Part shown: one piece after another, positions 18,800 to 54,925 of the stretch | Position numbering within the stretch: position 1 is the stretch's first letter | Layout of the letters: every line of letters begins with the position of its first letter | Source: Raillietiella orientalis | Taxonomy: Eukaryota | DNA length: 64,000 nucleotides | NCBI GenBank assembly: GCA_036172245.1 | Contig: JAYWIR010000031.1 | Location: 620,001 to 684,000 of the forward strand | Direction: 5' to 3' | Program-made: the position numbers and the translations under genes | Notes under the pieces: model-generated | Told to the model about the DNA's origin: nothing | The model's input: the letters and a program-made list of their open reading frames with translations, nothing else | Databases searched by the model: none

Positions 18800-19130
18800 T
18801 GGCTTCGAGGGTCCGGAAGTGTCCTTACGAGTTTCTCTGCAGAGGAGGAGGAAACGAGGAGCGCGTCCTTTCGAGCGAGCGAGTTCCCTCCAGAGAAGAA
18901 ATTCCAGGAGCGGATCCTTTCCGAATTCCCTTCCTAGAAGAAATGAGAAGGGGATCGACCCCTCCCCAGAGAATAAGGAAGAGTTTCCCTTCGGATTCCC
19001 TACCAAGAGTAAGAAAAACGGACTCCTTCCTCTGGAGCCTTCCTGGGTTAATTAGGGTGATCCTGTCCCTTCAGCTAGGGGGATCACCCCCTAACCGAAG
19101 TTACAAGCACCCTCGGGTGGCATAGATGGT
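18800..19130 (+). mobile_element. SINE-like element, 5'-truncated copy (array and tail)
   Basis: Contains gagaagaaattccaggagcggatcctttccg, shared exactly with ~25957 and ~50868, and the tail ttccctaccaaga/cgtaaga...ccttcctggg shared with the other copies. Confidence 0.8.
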
Positions 19131-23921: not shown

Positions 23922-25624
23922 GCTTTTTACCCGGGTTCGCCGGGGAGTTTATTTAGAGTAAAATATACATTTCGCAATTTTTGTCCGACCACGTTCTTTT
24001 TGTAGATACCCTGCCGTGTTACCGGCTCGCAGACCGGTGAGGGCCACCACGACAGCAGAGGGGAGTGGCCAAACAAAAAGAAAAAAACCAAAAAACAAAA
24101 ATAAAACAATTCTGGGGGAGGAGGTGAGGGAAGGGATCAGGTTCTGCCGGGGGCGGTTCTCTGCACCCTTTGGAGGATCCCTGCAAGGTCTTGCTGTCAT
24201 CTGGGCTCTATCCGCAGAAAGTGGAGAGCGAAATGGATGGCGTCCCTGTCTTTGGTTCCTCCGTTGGTGTCGCTCCACGCCTCCACGATCCCACAAAGGT
24301 AGCAAAGTGCTGCAAGAGCTGCGGCTGGCTTCAGGGCATTGCGCACAAAGATGAGTCGCACACTGTCTCTGGTCAGCAAAATATTTGACGTCCATGTTGT
24401 ATTGACTTCGTCTGGCATTGCTCCATGCAGCCACGGTTCCGCCGCGTAGGCGGCCAAGTGCTGCTGGGGATGAGGCCGGCGTGAGGGCGTCGCGAAGGAA
24501 GAGGCGTTTTCAAACGTCTCTGGCGTTGCTGCCGGGGATCCAAAGGGTCGCGGCGAAGCCTTCCCAAAAAGACGGGAGGGCAACACAGTCCACTAGAAGG
24601 TGCGTAAGGGATTCTTTCTCTCTGTACCTTGCACAGATCCACACACACCCGTGTCCAATGATGCTGACCGACATTGCACGGGAGGCCCCAATGCAACAGC
24701 ATCAACGCCGACTCCTGCCACTTCAAGGGGAGGACACGGGTATTCATAAGCACCGGAGAGCACTGCAGGTCTTCCTCCGGAATACATAGCAGCACGCCCC
24801 AGCGCAGAAGTCGACGAGGTCGAGCCCTCGGAGTCGCAGCGTCGGTGAGCTGACCCGTCGTCCACTCGCCATGTCCTTTCCTCCTTCCGGAGATTTCCAC
24901 AGTAACCTCCCTTCAAGTCGTAAGGCCACTGGTACCCATATGCTCCCTAAGGGAGTGCAGCACGGTGACGAGGGAGATTCTGCTTGCCCACGCACTCTGT
25001 TTGCGGGATCTTCCAGGATCTCCCTGAGCGTGCAGCCGTTGTTGGTGCGCGCGTACAGGAAACGTCGCACCTGTTCCGCGCTTGGCTCCTGGATCCTCGC
25101 CCAAGTGCGAACGGTTCCCTGAAACCAGGTGCTATTGTTCGCGGGGCAGCACGAAATCCATCCGTTTTTCCGGACCAGAGTGGACACCTGCCGCAGGTGC
25201 AGTCCGCAGTGGGTGAGACTGCGTGGACAGCGCGCAAGGATGGTCGCGAGTCCCACGCTGACGGTGGCTTGCTGGACGAGAAGACGTGCAAGTTGGCAGC
25301 AGGTGGTGCTCCAGAGGTTTGCCATAAGGGCGAGTGTCTTAAGCTGGAGCTACAGCACCATCCACTCCAGCGTCAGGAGGAGCCCTGGGCCGCCGTCTTT
25401 GCGCTGGCGCACAAGTCCTTCAGGAGGACTCGAGATCTCCCTTCGCCCCAGAGGGCGATTCGTAGGAGGTCCTTCGTCCTCTTTCTAATGCTGCATGGCA
25501 GGAGGCAAACAAAAAGCAGGGTTGTGGAGGAGGGAACCCACGAATGTGTTCCATATCGCGGCCCGTTCCGAGGAACGGACTCTTGGGGACGGACCGAGCG
25601 CCTGCAGTGCTCTCTGAAGACGAC
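23922..25624 (-). mobile_element. 5'-truncated L1/Tx1-like LINE (post-RT region, CCHC zinc-finger region, 3' UTR)
   Basis: Minus strand gives ERAAIWNTFVGSLL, ALWGEGRSRV..RKDGGPGLL, LPLKWQESALMLLHWGLPCN and CARYREKESLTHLLVDC. Ends AATAAA-CTC-CCCGG-CGAAC-CCGGG-TAAAAA. GGCACTG flanks both sides (23915-23921 and 25625-25631). Confidence 0.85.
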
Positions 25625-26125
25625 GGCACTGATGGAAGCAGGAAACCCTCGGATGCCCCCGATGAGTGGCCGGGACTGGAAGTCGACCCTCCGAGTCCTT
25701 TTAGAAATCAGAATGAAGGAGCCGGTTCCCTTCGGTTGTTAAAATGGAGCCGTTTGTTTCCCTCGTGGGCGACCCTCTATCGCGTGCCATAGAACTAGTT
25801 GATACCTCCCTTGGGGGTTACCTCTCCAGAGTGTCAAGAATCGCTCTCCTCCCTTCGGGGAGCGACCCTTTCTTAAGAGAAAAAACTTGAGAGCGTTCCT
25901 TAGGAGTTCTCTTTAGAGGAGGAAACAGGAAGCGGTTCCCTTGCGGGTTCCCTCAGGAGAAGAAATTCCAGGAGCGGATCCTTTCCGTATGTGTATGGAA
26001 GAGGTTCCCTCCCAAGTCAGCGGAACGAATTCCTTGCTCCATAGCCCTTCCCTGATTCATAGGGTGGCTCCTCTGGGGTTTTACCCCCTGACTCTACAGT
26101 CGATGTTGAACAGTGTCCCTCATCT
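25625..26125 (+). mobile_element. SINE-like element copy A, 3' part
   Basis: Resumes homology to the other copies exactly where the head stopped (ggcactg..cggatg..ggaagt..aaggagccg..ctccagagtgtca..gagaagaaattccaggagcggatcctttccg). Confidence 0.8.
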
Positions 26126-42215: not shown

Positions 42216-42660
42216 GGACGGACGTATGGCTGCGGTCTCCGCTCCTCATACTCAGCTCTATGAGCTCGAGTCCCACATGGGGAAGAATCGACGCTGAGGA
42301 ATGTCTCCTCCGCAGAATGACGCTGGTTGGCTTATTCGGGGACTGCGGCACTGGTAAAAGCCGCAAGCCGGATGTCTCCGTTGACCGGCTTGCGGGATCC
42401 GAAGTTGACCCTCCTGGGTCCCTTCCAGGGATCAAGGAACCGATTGCCTTCGGAGCTCCCTCTAGTTGTGCAATTGAAGCCTTCCTCTTAGGATATGACC
42501 CTCTATCGGGTTCCTTGAAGCGGGTCATGCTTCTCCAGAGCTCGAGAAGCGCTCTGCTCGCTTCGGGGAGCGGCCTTTCAGAGAAATTTGGAAGCGTCGG
42601 GTTCCCTTCGGAAAAATAACAATGGAGCGGCCTCCTCCGGGGTCCCTCCGGAGGCAACCA
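42216..42660 (+). mobile_element. SINE-like element copy B, 5' part (interrupted by LINE)
   Basis: cgtatggctgcggtctccgc head, gagctcgagtcc B-box-like (42262-42273), body homologous to 50540-50990 with fewer array units. Confidence 0.75.
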
Positions 42661-43599
42661 TAAGAGCGTAGGAGTGGATGCTCACCCCCCCCCCCCCCCT
42701 TAGCGGCAACGCTGTCCTTCATGAGGAGGGAGGGAGCTTGGGAGCAGTCAAACCCTGAGGTGAAAGTCTCCTGAGAGATCGCAGGTAGGGAAAGCTGAGA
42801 CCCCGAGTGCCCTTCCACGAGAACTGCAGCGCTGGGGCGAGCTGCTAGACATTCCTCGCGGAGACCTGCGGTGGCCCCCCAATGCTCAAGAACAGCAGCG
42901 TCCTTTTCCCAATGTGGAAGGAATCGGCAGCACTTCTGCTGTTGCACTGGGGTCTTCCCTGAAACGCACGCCGACAACACCGGGTGTTGTTGAGAAGGGC
43001 AAGCCCGGACTGTCTCAGATGCAGGAAACGGGAGTCCCTCACGCACCTGCTTGCGGACTGTGCTGCCCTATGGCTCCTATGGGAACGTTTCGGAGCAATC
43101 CTCCGGATCCCGGTTGGCACCCTCAGGGACATCTTACGGCTCCCCTTTGTGCAGGATCCTCTGCAGCCAGCCGCAGCCTCAGCAGCGCTTTGCTGCATCC
43201 GCGGGATTGTGGCGGCTAGGAGCGAAGCCAACGAAGGAAGAAACGCGAGGGACGCCGTCCAGTTCGCAGTTCGCTTTCTGCGGATAGCAGCATCCAGATG
43301 GTCCCACTTGGGACTAAATTGGCAGATAAATATAGCACCTAGCTGGCATCCTAAAAACGATGCAGACTCCTTTCAGTAGAGAGTGGTCCCTTGTCGATCC
43401 GCCCAAGGATTTTTATTTCATTTAATTTTTTGTTTTTTTCCCATCCCTCTCCGCTGCCGGGGGGAGCACCATCGGTCTGCGGACCGGCGACCTGGAAGGT
43501 CCATGGACAAACAGAGTGTGGTAGAGCCACGTGTCTCGCCACAATTTATGAGTTTCTTTTCAATTTCAAGAAACGCTCCCGGCGTGTCCGGGTGGGAAT
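42661..43599 (+). mobile_element. 5'-truncated L1/Tx1-like LINE (same family as 23922-25624)
   Basis: ORF 42984..43379 contains DCLRCRKRESLTHLLADC (CCHC finger) and PAAASAALCCIRGIVAARS. The 3' UTR has the shared hairpins. Flanked by CGGAGGCAACCA (42649-42660) and CGGAGACAACCA (43600-43611). Confidence 0.85.
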
Positions 43600-43755
43600 C
43601 GGAGACAACCAGGACGAAGGTTTCCTACGGAAAGCCTTCATCCTGGTTGTCTTACCAAGCGTAAGAGAAAAACAGGCCCCTTTCTTCGTAGCTTTCCTGG
43701 ATTCATGGGGTGTTCCTTACGGGGCCACCCTACAACTTGAAGAGTTTCACGTGTG
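43600..43755 (+). mobile_element. SINE-like element copy B, 3' tail
   Basis: cggagacaaccagg and taccaagcgtaagag are shared with 50987-51040. Confidence 0.75.
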
Positions 43756-46479: not shown

Positions 46480-47286
46480 CTCTCCGCCCACGGCAACCCG
46501 CATGGGGGCGTGTAATTCTTCTGGATAGGGGGCACCCCGGGATGGGGGTCCGCTTTATGAATCCCAGGAAGGACTCGGAGTCCGTTCCTCTCACGCTTCT
46601 CGCACCTCCCACCCTGGTTGTCTCCGAAGGGGAACCCCGAAGGGAATCTCGTTCCTCATTCTCTCCGGAGGGACGCCCCCCGCAATGTGGGGTGGTCCTC
46701 TCCATTTCAACTTCTCCGAAGGGAGCCCGGAAAGGATCCTCTTGTAGGAATTTCTTCTCCGGAGGGAACCTGCAAGGGAACCGCTCCTTTTCACTACTCT
46801 GAAGAGAATCCGAAGGGATGCTTCCGAAATTCAGAAGAGGCGTTGTAGATTCCCGCAGGGGAATCGCTCTCGCTTGCTTCCTTGCACTCTGTGAAGAGGC
46901 GACGACTCAGAGGGTCCCTCCCGCAACAGGAGGGTCCGCTCCTTTGAACAACTGGAGAGGTGCCTGTGAAGGCACCTGCTCCATCTTGAAAGCGGAGGGG
47001 TCCCCCGGTGTGGGAGGTCCGCTCTCCGTTGTGCGACTGGAGGGGGAACTCCCCACTCCTTTATCCCTGGGAGGACCCGAAGGTCGACTCCCATTGCTCT
47101 GGACTTCATCGGGGGCCTCCGGGCTTTATCCACCGCCAGGGCCATGCCCGAATGTCTCGGCCAACCAGCTCCATCTTGCAGGAGAAACTCGGAACCCAAC
47201 GACGCAGTGGCGTCAGTTATCTGCCGAAGTATTCGAACCCGCGACGCATGGTGCCACGCGCGGAAGCCTTAACCACAAAGCCTCCG
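46480..47286 (-). mobile_element. SINE-like element copy C, apparently full length (~0.8 kb)
   Basis: Minus strand begins GGAGGCTTTGTGGTTAAGGC (tRNA D-arm/A-box-like), then GGGTTCGAATAC (B box), followed by body, array and tail homologous to the other copies. Confidence 0.8.
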
Positions 47287-50440: not shown

Positions 50441-51050
50441 ACCGTGTGGCTACGGTCTCCGCACGTGACACCAGGCGTTACGGGTTCGAGTCCCGTTCGA
50501 CTCCAAGAAATGGGTGCGCCGCAGGCTTCGAGTCGCCCTTCGCGGAATGACGCTAGTTGATCCTATGTGCTCCAGGGCGGCTCACCGGATGTACCCGTTG
50601 ACTAGCCTGGATCGGAAGTGGGGGTCCTTCCAAGAATCAAGGAGCCGCTTCCTTTGGAAGGGTTTTCTTCGGTTGTGAAGAGGGAGCCGTACCATCGCGT
50701 ACCATGGAGCTGATTGATACCCCCCTCGAGCGTTTTTGGCTCTCCAGAGTGTCAGAAGTGCAATGCTCTTTTCGGAGAGCAGCCCCTAAGAGAAACTTGG
50801 AAGCGTCGCGTTCTCTTCGGAGGAGGAGGAAAGAGGGAGGGAGCTATTCCCTTGCAGTTTCCGTCCGGAGAAGAAATTCCAGGAGCGGATCCTTTCCGGG
50901 TTCCCTTCGGAGAAGAAACGAGGAGCGACTCCCTCCGGGGTTCCTTCCGGAGAAAACAAGGAAGAGGATCCCTTCGTCGTTTCATTCGGAGACAACCAGG
51001 GCGAGGGTTCCATTCAAAGTTCCCTACCAAGCGTAAGAGGAACGAAACAC
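50441..51050 (+). mobile_element. SINE-like element copy D
   Basis: ccgtgtggctacgg, then ACGGG-TTCGAGT-CCCGT (perfect T-arm, B box at 50483-50493), body, and six CGGAG-initiated units at 50773, 50818, 50866, 50908, 50948 and 50987. Confidence 0.85.
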
Positions 51051-53134
51051 TCTGTAAAAGCCTGGAGAAATGCATCTGTTCTTTTGGGAACATTCCCAAA
51101 GGAAGAATCTCCACCATCTGGGAGTCATGCTGGAGCAAGAAGATCTCCGAAAGCGATTTGAGAAACACCCGTTTCTTGAGATATGGCTGGTCCCAGCTTT
51201 TCAGAATGCAACGGTAGAGGAAATCTTCAAATATTTGGAGCGGAGTGATTCTGGTAAAGCTGTCGGCACTGTGGACGAGGATGGAAGCTGAACATCTGTG
51301 ATTCTAAAAGGTGTTTGCTTCATCTCTCTGCCATGCGCGCGCGCTCGAAATGTCCAAGTCGTTCCCAACCAAAAAGAGCCTTTTCTCTTCTGCGAATGCT
51401 GTACTCGAATGCGTTTCTCGATTAGGTCATCATCACCATAATCATCATCAGACAAGCAATTTCACCACTCTCTCTGAACCCTTTTGGTGAGGAGAAGAAA
51501 GAAACCGCACGAGTGGCAAGATACGGAAGGTCCATGCTCCTCATGCAGACCTTAGGTCCTCGTGACGTGCGGTCCACAGCTACCATCAGGTGTCTGGACG
51601 GAGATGACAAATGTTTGCTGCATCTATTCACAAGAGAAACGAACCTTGTAAGCCGAGGTAATGAGAAGTTGGCATCCCTTTGTAAACATCAAAAGAGATA
51701 TGAATTCGTTCCTAAAAATAGCTTGAGAAACGGTACATATTTCTGTTTGGAGATCCGAACAGAGCGATGGATTTGATAAGTAATCCAAACTGTGCTCTCC
51801 GAGAAACAAATGGGATTGTGATAGACGGGCGTCATCAGAGCTGAAAGGAAAATGCTCGACTGATGGTAACGGAAACCACGCTGAATCCGGATAAAGGTGG
51901 TTATTGTTTCTGTTAATGTGACTCACAGTGCTGCTGTAAGTCCACAGTTCACTGTGTCACTCTGAGTGGAGCCCAGACCCTCAGACAGAATCATGACCAA
52001 TCGTTTAACTTCCTGGGATTTCCTACCGCATGAGTTGTAGCTCGTCAGCAGAATTACGTCATCACCGAGTGCCAATTTGGTATTCACACCTACGATTGGC
52101 TTAACACCGATTTGGATTCTTCTACAAATTTGAATCGTGCCCACTGAGTTTTGTTTTGGATCAGGCTACATTCTTGTTCTAGTTACCCCCGGTTCCACCG
52201 TTTATGCCACATCTGCCACAGTTTTGCTCTGTCTGTTTCCATACACTCTTGAATTTTTCATCTCAAGACATCACACTGGGCATTTCAGTAGGTATTCTCG
52301 CAGTTTGCATCTTTCTTGCAACTTCATCATATGTATCAACTTCTCTTCCTAGATTTCTTCCCTTCTACTTCAAACAGCTAGAAATAACCCCAGCCCCAAA
52401 CCTCCCTCTTTTCTAACAAACAAGACATTTATTCACAATAAGAAATAATAATACCTCGCGTTTCCTGCTTCATCTGAGAGCCAAAGAAACGCCCTTTCTT
52501 TTCCTTGCTCCTACTGAAGCCGTGGAACTTCTCAGCTTCCATGGTAAAAGCAGCTAACCTTACTAGCAAACAAAAGTCATAGCCATATCATTGGAGTTTC
52601 CCTACCTATCCACCTTCTCATCAACAACCATGTTCTCCATGCATAAAGCCCTATTCTTTGCTGTGTCCTTTTTCTGCAACAGTGCAGCAAATCATGGATA
52701 CTGGAACCAACTTTAGCAACTTTTGCATTCTCTTCTGCTGGATTTCAGATCCATGTGGAGCATGAAACAGTACCTCTCCTCAGGTTGCTTCCATCTCCTT
52801 TAAGAGCAGCTTCCTCTGCGATTTTTGTTATCAAAAAAAAGCAATGGAAAAGCAAACTGAAAATGGAAACAGATACTTACGTTGGCCAGCAACTGTTCAT
52901 TTGACGACGGAAGCACTTTACCTTCTAGATGGTTCTTTCTTGTAATCCCGATGTTTTCTATAAAAGTAATATTCATTATGATCAAGTTTTTAGAAGGTAT
53001 CTCTTCCACATCTGCTGCCGCCGAGTGATTTTAGATTCTTGTTTTCCATTGCGTGATCATGAATGAAGCTTAAATAAACAAACACCCCCCCAAAAATAGC
53101 CTATACAGAGCGTGTATGGAATCTTAAGCAACGT

Positions 53135-53563
53135 GGCAGAAGACTTTTTGAAGAAATTGCACGAAACGATCTCTACTAAGAGATGATGATGTACGAGGAG
53201 CGTTTTCCTCACATTCCAGACAATTCGAAAATTCGGATGAAAACTCTTTGATCACCCAGTCCTGACCTCGCCCCCGTTGACTACCACGTCTTCCTGCAGC
53301 TCCAGAAGTGGCTCGACGATTCGAGGGGGAGAGTGAGGAGTTGAAAACTGCAGTGCTGCTGAGCTCTTAGAAGGCGGGACTTCATGCAGAGGGTTTCAAA
53401 AAGCTCGTTCTGCGGTGTCAAAAGCGTTTGGGGAAAAATGGTGGTGACTACGTGGAAAAATGACACGGGGGTGTACGTGTCTCGAACCACCAATACACCT
53501 TTGTTCCTCTCCTTTGTTCTTTCTTTATATTCGTTCGGCCTTACTTTTGAGACGAACCTCTTA
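53135..53563 (+). mobile_element. mariner-family transposon relic (transposase C-terminus and right TIR)
   Basis: FLKKLHETISTKR, FG*KLFDHP/SPDLAPVDYHVFLQLQKWL (the YSPDLAPxDY motif), GFKKLVLRCQK..GDYVEK*, then a TIR-like cggccttacttttgagacgaacctct|ta. Confidence 0.85.
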
Positions 53564-54329: not shown

Positions 54330-54925
54330 TGCTTATACAGATCCCCTACAAGGAGATTTGCGGGTGGCATTCAGTTCCCCACCACGAACAGATGCTTCTA
54401 GACTTCCAGACCGGCACCTGTGGCTGCGTTACGCAAAGACGCTTGGTGCACCGAAGGACAATCCCAGGGACGTGATGAAGCGCCTCTTCGATGCCCTTTC
54501 GCCTGCCGCATCCTCAGCAGCTCTTTGCTACTGCCTACATGGGGTTGTGGAGGCCTGGAGCTATACGAAAGGAGGATGGCACGAGAGGGATGCCATCTGC
54601 TTCACCCTGTACTTCCTCCGGACGGCAGAATGATGGCTCCACCTGGGGCATACTCGGATGGAACTTGCCGGCATCCTGGAAAGGAAGCAGAGGAAGCCAC
54701 CCAGTGGACAGTGATCCCTTCCCGTGCCCCCCAGAGTTTTCTGCTGTCATTTACTTTTATTTTTATCTTCGTTTACCCCTTCCCCTTCGGTTGCCGAGGC
54801 GAACTTAGCCGGCCTGCGTGCCAGTTACTCGGCAGGTTCCGAACATTTTCGGACGTCGTAGGGCCGATGACCCTACACACTTGTACGTGTAATTTCATAA
54901 TAAACGCCCCGGAGCTACCGGGTGC
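54330..54925 (+). mobile_element. 5'-truncated L1/Tx1-like LINE 3' end (third copy of the family)
   Basis: RDVMKRLFDALSPAASSAALCYCLHGVVEAWSYTKGGWHERDAICFTLYFLR is homologous to the other two copies. Same 3'-UTR hairpins, AATAAA at 54899. Confidence 0.8.

Follow-up and report, generated by a model that had tools for sequence, protein, structure and literature searches.

A conserved paired motif in the 3' tail of a likely non-LTR retrotransposon from Raillietiella orientalis and its possible role as a recognition handle

Introduction

Stringent-type long interspersed nuclear elements (LINEs) require a stem-loop in the 3' tail of their RNA, to which the protein of open reading frame 2 (ORF2) binds (PMC4176376; PMC1636434). 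In the R2 retrotransposon, the feature read by the protein is a small core of two stems whose single-stranded junction is conserved, and a 43-nucleotide (nt) tag derived from it is enough for target-primed reverse transcription (TPRT) (PMC10499050). Here we describe a 45-nt motif that occurs in three copies within a 64,000-nt stretch of Raillietiella orientalis contig JAYWIR010000031.1 (hereafter the window, from whose first letter all positions are counted). Each copy lies ~80 nt downstream of a decayed open reading frame (ORF) that likely belonged to a retrotransposon lacking long terminal repeats (non-LTR). The motif may be the core of a 78-80-nt hairpin made of three helices (P0, P1 and P2) in a 3' untranslated region (UTR) of ~207 nt, and we put the probability that this hairpin was part of a tail recognised by the ORF2 protein of its own element at roughly 50%.

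The locus resembles the described systems in some respects and departs from them in others. UnaL2 of eel and ZfL2-1 and ZfL2-2 of zebrafish, all of the L2 clade, carry, like the motif, a family-specific irregular stem in the LINE 3' UTR that is conserved among relatives, and the role proposed for stringent-type stem-loops is the one considered here, in which the cognate ORF2 protein recognises them ahead of TPRT (PMC4176376; PMC1636434). What the window shares with the stringent type is a stem-loop in the 3' UTR that was kept by structure-preserving changes, as seen in three copies only. Unlike stringent-type tails, it has the motif in an internal position, with a separate terminal hairpin 66-79 nt downstream and without 3' tandem repeats.

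The 43-nt tag of R2, which is divided into P1, P2 and the junction J1/2, is like the motif compact (about 45 nt) and built of two stems that vary in sequence yet pair (PMC10499050). Both also have a few invariant single-stranded residues; here these are the loop CUGCG, three bulge residues (G1, G3 and C6) and the A that directly precedes the 3' P1 strand. Unlike R2, in which two stems are joined by a junction, the motif is a nested hairpin, and the two have no sequence likeness. R2 is specific for ribosomal DNA, and its protein carries a restriction-like endonuclease at the C-terminus, after the zinc knuckle. In contrast, the motif-bearing element has only ~105 residues past its knuckle, and its copies are dispersed.

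Three copies of the motif share one fold

An earlier note on this DNA had proposed a 45-nt covarying RNA structure in three copies, and on re-reading the window we found their positions and sequences to be exact:

24011-24055, minus strand: motif copy 1, with 14/15 pairs of P1 and P2 formed
43454-43498, plus strand: motif copy 2, with 13/15 pairs formed; the sole copy with a C-G pair closing UGCG
54791-54835, plus strand: motif copy 3, with 13/15 pairs formed

All three copies fit the proposed parse P1(8)-9 nt-P2(7)-UGCG-P2'(7)-2 nt-P1'(8), that is, a P1 of 8 bp, a 9-nt bulge, P2, the UGCG loop and a 2-nt junction. P1 is paired in 23 of 24 cells (8, 7 and 8 of 8 in copies 1, 2 and 3) and P2 in 17 of 21 (6, 6 and 5 of 7), giving 40 of 45 for the two helices across the three copies. 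The innermost, seventh pair of P2, which closes UGCG, reads C.A in copy 1, C-G in copy 2 and C.U in copy 3. A fixed length within an indel-rich UTR, also claimed at the outset, was borne out, as every copy is 45 nt long and gapless between flanks that need gaps in the alignments. The motif together with 10 and 6 flanking bases aligns gap-free across the copies, and the wider 3' region needs many gaps. Identity between copies of the motif is 60-69%, similar to that of the remaining UTR.

The three copies thus have a common helix architecture with structure-preserving substitutions. Pair 7 of P1 does read U-A, G-C and A-U, and it is the sole fully compensatory pair in P1 and P2. Pair 6 of P2 likewise shows the reported pattern (U-G, U-A and C-G), but this series can be reached by single steps via G.U and does not count as compensatory. 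With one compensatory pair in three sequences only, the label of covariation is thinly based, and the structure-preserving nature of the substitutions is the part of it that stands.

The unpaired residues that are invariant comprise the CUGCG loop, three positions of the bulge (G1, G3 and C6) and the A preceding the 3' strand of P1. The earlier note had placed the loop in the UNCG tetraloop class. UGCG is indeed present in 3/3 copies, but the C-G closing pair that defines cUNCGg tetraloops is present in 1/3 only, and the loops of copies 1 and 3 are effectively hexaloops of the form CUGCGN, unlike cUNCGg. The invariance of CUGCG suggests sequence-specific recognition, which it fits better than loop stability.

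A pseudoknot between the bulge and the sequence just downstream had also been suggested, but it did not rise above chance level, with helices of equal length in 1326, 1586 and 1554 of 2000 bulge shuffles. A kink-turn reading of the bulge was dropped because the junction bases do not fit.

Ribozymes of the hepatitis delta virus (HDV)-like and hammerhead types are reportedly known in some retrotransposons, as in a study of L1Tc, and a small self-cleaving ribozyme or another catalogued RNA family would be one explanation for a compact fold in such a tail. Known ribozyme classes have nested pseudoknots or conserved cores, and a two-helix hairpin with a 9-nt bulge has neither. None of 4227 Rfam models reached its gathering score over the window. 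At E<=10 the three copy regions returned only unrelated families (E 0.6-9.7), none of them on the sense strand over the motif. Together with the chance-level pseudoknot, these results make a ribozyme or catalogued family highly improbable.

Pairing compared with chance

Consensus folding of the 45 motif columns gave -19.1 kcal/mol, compared with -9.6 +/- 2.4 kcal/mol after column shuffling, and 0 of 500 shuffles were as low; over alignment columns 1-90, 2 of 500 column shuffles were equally low. A sliding scan along the 442-column alignment of the 3' region placed the lowest consensus energy (-20.3) in the motif windows, a value matched in 0 of 150 shuffles, and in the same scan the energies were ~0 kcal/mol over both spacers (U-rich and AU-rich) and over most of the coding sequence. 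When RNAalifold was given a 146-157-nt stretch of each copy that takes in both the motif and the terminal hairpin, it found P1 and P2 unprompted.

Pair retention was compared with a null in which the observed stem changes (8-12 of 30 positions between two copies) were placed randomly with a 2:1 transition bias. Random placement left a mean of 7.8-9.6 of the 15 pairs of P1 and P2, and the real copies keep 13-14 (P 0.0015-0.025, from six ordered comparisons that are not independent). For P1 alone P was 0.005-0.08, and for P0, P1 and P2 together it was <=0.007.

P0 is an outer 7-bp helix that RNAalifold adds to the motif, formed by the seven bases directly 5' of it and a stretch 19-20 nt downstream. 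The resulting domains, and the terminal hairpins that follow them (located by alignment, RNAalifold and pair counts), are:

23985-24062, minus strand: P0-P1-P2 domain of copy 1, with P0 formed by 24056-24062 and 23985-23991
43447-43526, plus strand: P0-P1-P2 domain of copy 2, with P0 formed by 43447-43453 and 43519-43526, 7/7 paired
54784-54863, plus strand: P0-P1-P2 domain of copy 3, with P0 formed by 54784-54790 and 54856-54863, 7/7 paired
23930-23944, minus strand: terminal hairpin CCCGG-N5-CCGGG of copy 1
43578-43592, plus strand: terminal hairpin of copy 2
54908-54922, plus strand: terminal hairpin of copy 3

In copies 2 and 3, P0 keeps 7/7 pairs despite five changed positions (P 0.012 under the random-substitution null), and both partners are exchanged at two of its pairs, one of which reads C-G or U-A and the other C-G or G-C, with U-G as a further form. 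The terminal hairpin is 15 nt long and has a 5-bp GC stem that is invariant at 10/10 positions in the three copies, with 3-4 of the 5 loop positions differing in each pairwise comparison. When P0, P1, P2 and the terminal hairpin are counted together, 74 of 80 cells are paired and four pairs are altered on both sides, and the covariation score of the set was reached by 11 of 500 shuffles.

The pair table also bears on which strand carried the structure. The sense strand has 11 G.U cells, among them one invariant G-U in P0, and three A.C or C.A mismatches that would pair on the antisense strand, so that 74 of 80 cells are paired in the sense direction versus 66 of 80 in the antisense direction. 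This excess of G.U favours RNA of the sense strand, the same strand as the ORF, and folding energies are also better on the sense strand in copies 1 and 2. A DNA-level explanation, in which palindromes in complementary or double-stranded DNA served for example as a snap-back primer for the second strand or as a protein-binding site, would agree with the equal performance of the reverse complement in the column-shuffle test. It would also agree with the stems of the terminal hairpin, which are perfect palindromic GC blocks without covariation. On the other strand, however, the 11 G.U cells become A.C mismatches, and the energies of copies 1 and 2 point the same way, so we consider selection on DNA palindromes improbable.

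Several results weigh against a selected RNA fold and hence against a recognition role. The equal score of the reverse complement under column shuffling is one of them, and P2 taken alone was not significant under the random-substitution null (P 0.03-0.37). Single-sequence energies of the three 45-mers were ordinary relative to dinucleotide shuffles (z -1.24, -0.48 and -1.21), as were those of 79-149-nt contexts (z +0.88 to -1.38), and of the minimum-energy folds of these contexts just one, that of the 143-nt stretch from copy 1, combined P1 with P2. Shuffling of the 3' partners reached the covariation score of P1 and P2 in 50 of 500 trials. Only three sequences are available, the fold was chosen from the very sequences on which it was tested, and P0 was found post hoc, so its figures weigh less than their face value.

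The pairing could be a neutral relic, an ancestral GC-rich inverted repeat that has diverged too little to lose its pairs and whose pairing was unselected and functionless. Such a relic would be consistent with shuffled GC-rich 45-mers folding nearly as well, with 60-69% identity in the motif as in the rest of the UTR, and with a single fully compensatory pair; counting pairs carries the caveat that related sequences may beat shuffles without any structure. It accounts less well for the 13-14 pairs of 15 that are retained where random substitution leaves 7.8-9.6, for the intact P0 of copies 2 and 3, and for a motif block that is free of indels when its flanks are not. We therefore regard a neutral relic as unlikely and think it probable that the pairing was under selection.

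The motif lies in the 3' tail of a likely retrotransposon

Upstream of each motif copy is the remnant of an ORF, recovered by tblastn between copies and by alignment:

24137-24852, minus strand: decayed C-terminal ORF remnant of copy 1, with frameshifts and a TGA at 24139-24137
42782-43386, plus strand: decayed C-terminal ORF remnant of copy 2, with the knuckle, a TAG at 43377-43379 and the ancestral TGA changed to TGG at 43384-43386
54418-54714, plus strand: decayed C-terminal ORF remnant of copy 3, with one in-frame stop and the ancestral TGA at 54712-54714

The three remnants align with one another over their last 50-100 residues. A TGA within a conserved (G/C)TGATCCCTTCCC ends the frame. 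Copies 1 and 3 retain this codon; copy 2 has TGG at its place, closely preceded by the TAG. About 105 residues ahead of the stop, copies 1 and 2 have a zinc-knuckle pattern, CxxC-x7-H-x4-C, which resembles the zinc-binding C-terminal end of non-LTR reverse transcriptases. Pfam zf-RVT matched the remnant weakly (E 0.062-0.087, with 0.062 for copy 2; 14 bits, under the cut-off of 27.5), and in the ESM Atlas clusters of zf-RVT made up 25 of 30 named matches, with a best score of 0.95. An AlphaFold model of the remnant was poor, with a mean predicted local distance difference test (pLDDT) of 47.2.

The last codons of the ORF remnant contain a further conserved hairpin of 7 bp, GCAUCCU-N4-AGGAUGC-like, in all copies (24155-24185, minus strand; 43341-43368 and 54666-54696, plus strand). 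This hairpin is the exception to the near-zero energies of the coding part, with a consensus energy of -7.4 kcal/mol that none of 150 column shuffles reached in two of the scan windows covering it.

The three copies are dispersed and lie on both strands. Measured from the terminal hairpin, homology between them extends ~920, 810 and 505 nt upstream, so that their 5' ends differ. They are likely scattered insertions of a non-LTR retrotransposon, present in either orientation and truncated at the 5' side. The description of the locus as a LINE 3' UTR in the earlier note agrees with a ~207-nt tail after a zinc-knuckle-bearing ORF, but membership of the LINEs is unproven, with no reverse transcriptase (RT) within 4.2 kb upstream.

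Some of what would be expected of such an element is missing, and these absences count on the other side. Pfam found no RT domain in any ORF of >=90 amino acids in the window or in three-frame read-through of the 4.2 kb upstream of each copy; because the copies are 5'-truncated, the RT is absent from the window and not thereby from the family. There is no target-site duplication, in that no direct repeat of >9 nt joins the 3' flank to upstream sequence, and neither a poly(A) tract nor a tandem tail repeat follows the terminal hairpin in any copy. As the copies are old and decayed, the missing duplications and tails are weak evidence.

From the ORF stop to the end of the terminal hairpin the distance is 206-208 nt in each copy, and this 3' UTR starts C-rich, continues with a U-rich tract full of indels and then the P0-P1-P2 domain, and closes with an AU-rich spacer followed by the terminal hairpin. 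The U-rich tract was delimited by reading the sequence:

24071-24109, minus strand: U-rich, indel-rich tract of copy 1
~43410-43439, plus strand: U-rich, indel-rich tract of copy 2
~54737-54775, plus strand: U-rich, indel-rich tract of copy 3

Homology fades within ~40 nt past the terminal hairpin, which therefore stands at the 3' end of the element or close to it. The only likeness beyond it is a 15-nt match between copies 1 and 2, whose score was reached by 20 of 300 shuffles. The AU-rich spacer of copies 1 and 3 contains AATAAA, 3 nt ahead of the terminal hairpin; that of copy 2 has AGAAAC instead.

This layout is also what a functional RNA with a different job might show, such as 3'-end formation or polyadenylation by way of the U-rich tract and AAUAAA, control of stability or export, or translational control of ORF2. 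The U-rich tract does lie upstream of the motif and AATAAA is in place in copies 1 and 3, and the terminal hairpin, from which the motif is separated by 66-79 nt, could by itself be the handle for the RT. The AGAAAC of copy 2 and the lack of a poly(A) tail after any copy argue against polyadenylation. A function of this kind seems quite unlikely to us, and the present data do not separate it from recognition by the RT.

A near-perfect long palindrome was seen at 43604-43652 as a self-inverted BLAST match, ~10 nt past the terminal hairpin in copy 2. Its outer arms are ~12 bp and its inner hairpin has a UACG loop; copies 1 and 3 are not followed by such a palindrome.

Searches for relatives

Few relatives of the element emerged from the databases. 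A profile of the ORF remnant searched against 1.84 billion representative proteins gave two matches, one of which is a true relative, an 87-residue fragment from a 2870-bp jgi contig that returned only itself when used as a query. The other, a repeat protein, was rejected as a chance match, and a protein search for longer relatives found none. Scans with a protein pattern returned 580 matches in metagenome contigs, 376 in prokaryotic genome contigs and 132 in viral contigs, with no confirmed relative in any of the three sets.

DNA patterns fared similarly. An 18-base DNA pattern matched at least 118 metagenome stretches and 4 viral stretches, and these were rejected as relatives, since among the matches listed in these 122 loci the 120 with full context had P1 paired at <=6 of 8 positions. 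A 22-base pattern had one match in a genome of Amycolatopsis, which was judged to be chance, and none among viral sequences. The single match of a profile search against the PDB (E 0.67) was likewise judged to be chance. No transfer RNA (tRNA)-like sequence was found downstream of the motif copies and no tRNA in the window, and strings of the motif were absent from the literature searched.

The motif is therefore undescribed in the narrow sense that no Rfam family matches it and none was found in the searched literature, and to this extent its presentation as possibly undescribed holds. Structured, lineage-specific 3' tails are already known in LINEs, so the novelty is that of one more family's example.

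A possible handle for the ORF2 protein

The sequences, their pairing, the pattern of substitution and the position of the motif are observed directly in the window; from these we infer that it acted as RNA, that the ORF2 protein may have bound it, and that it may have had some part in TPRT. Helices that vary and stay paired, combined with a few invariant unpaired bases, are also what protein-recognised retrotransposon tails have, and for this reason we favour a handle for the ORF2 protein. That the P0-P1-P2 domain was part of the means by which this protein selected its own RNA is a tentative proposal, to which we give slightly less than even odds.

Under this proposal, the host element would be an old family of non-LTR retrotransposons that is poorly sampled in public data, and the three copies would come from diverged sub-lineages. 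The motif would be the core of the larger, irregular 78-80-nt hairpin composed of P0, P1 and P2. While the element was active, selection would have held these helices paired on the sense RNA and would also have fixed a few unpaired positions: C-UGCG in the loop, G1, G3 and C6 in the bulge, and the A immediately 5' of P1'. The RT encoded by ORF2 would recognise an RNA tail that includes the P0-P1-P2 domain, and the invariant terminal GC hairpin would cooperate by positioning the 3' end. Together, domain and terminal hairpin would let TPRT begin on RNA of the element itself, in the manner of stringent-type LINEs. The helices would then serve as a scaffold, and the invariant single-stranded bases as candidate contacts for the protein.

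The arrangement of the tail and the contents of the window are in part at odds with recognition by ORF2. As far as is known, characterised stringent-type stem-loops sit at the extreme 3' tail; here 66-79 nt separate the end of the motif from the terminal hairpin. No partner short interspersed nuclear element (SINE) that shares the tail was seen within the 64-kb window, and neither a covariance model run with filters off nor an nhmmer profile detected a further copy of the motif or the tail there.

A stronger version would hold that the P0-P1-P2 domain with its CUGCG loop and the terminal hairpin formed a self-sufficient RT recognition tag of an essentially unsampled LINE lineage, which we consider conceivable but doubtful. 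If true, such a tag would be similar in size and logic to the 43-nt tag of R2 with another architecture, and would represent a new RNA-protein module for TPRT.

If the motif is real, it would mark the RNA handle by which another LINE lineage picks its own transcript. Compact RNA handles of this type account for partnerships between LINEs and SINEs, and the R2 tag sets a precedent for fitting a cargo RNA with such a handle and having it inserted by a retrotransposon protein. In combination with the terminal hairpin, the motif would also provide a specific annotation signature for truncated copies of this retrotransposon family. The general understanding of LINE tails is unchanged by these observations, and the claim rests on three decayed copies.

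Other features of the window

The 64-kb window looks like repeat-rich, non-coding eukaryotic DNA, and its 161 stop-to-stop ORFs of >=90 amino acids gave no Pfam domain. A short frame and a second interspersed repeat family were noted in addition to the retrotransposon copies:

53120-53470, plus strand: short frame containing ..SPDLAPVDYHVF..
18822-18962: second repeat family, partial copy
25823-26056: second repeat family, partial copy
42495-42654: second repeat family, partial copy
46583-46822: second repeat family, partial copy
50694-50952: second repeat family, partial copy

The short frame is presumably similar to the C-terminus of a mariner/Tc1 transposase, and Pfam gave no match to it even at E<=10. 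The five partial copies of the second repeat family are 73-84% identical at the DNA level and have no Pfam match. With respect to the retrotransposon tail, the second repeat is oriented differently at copies 1 and 2 and is therefore a separate element.

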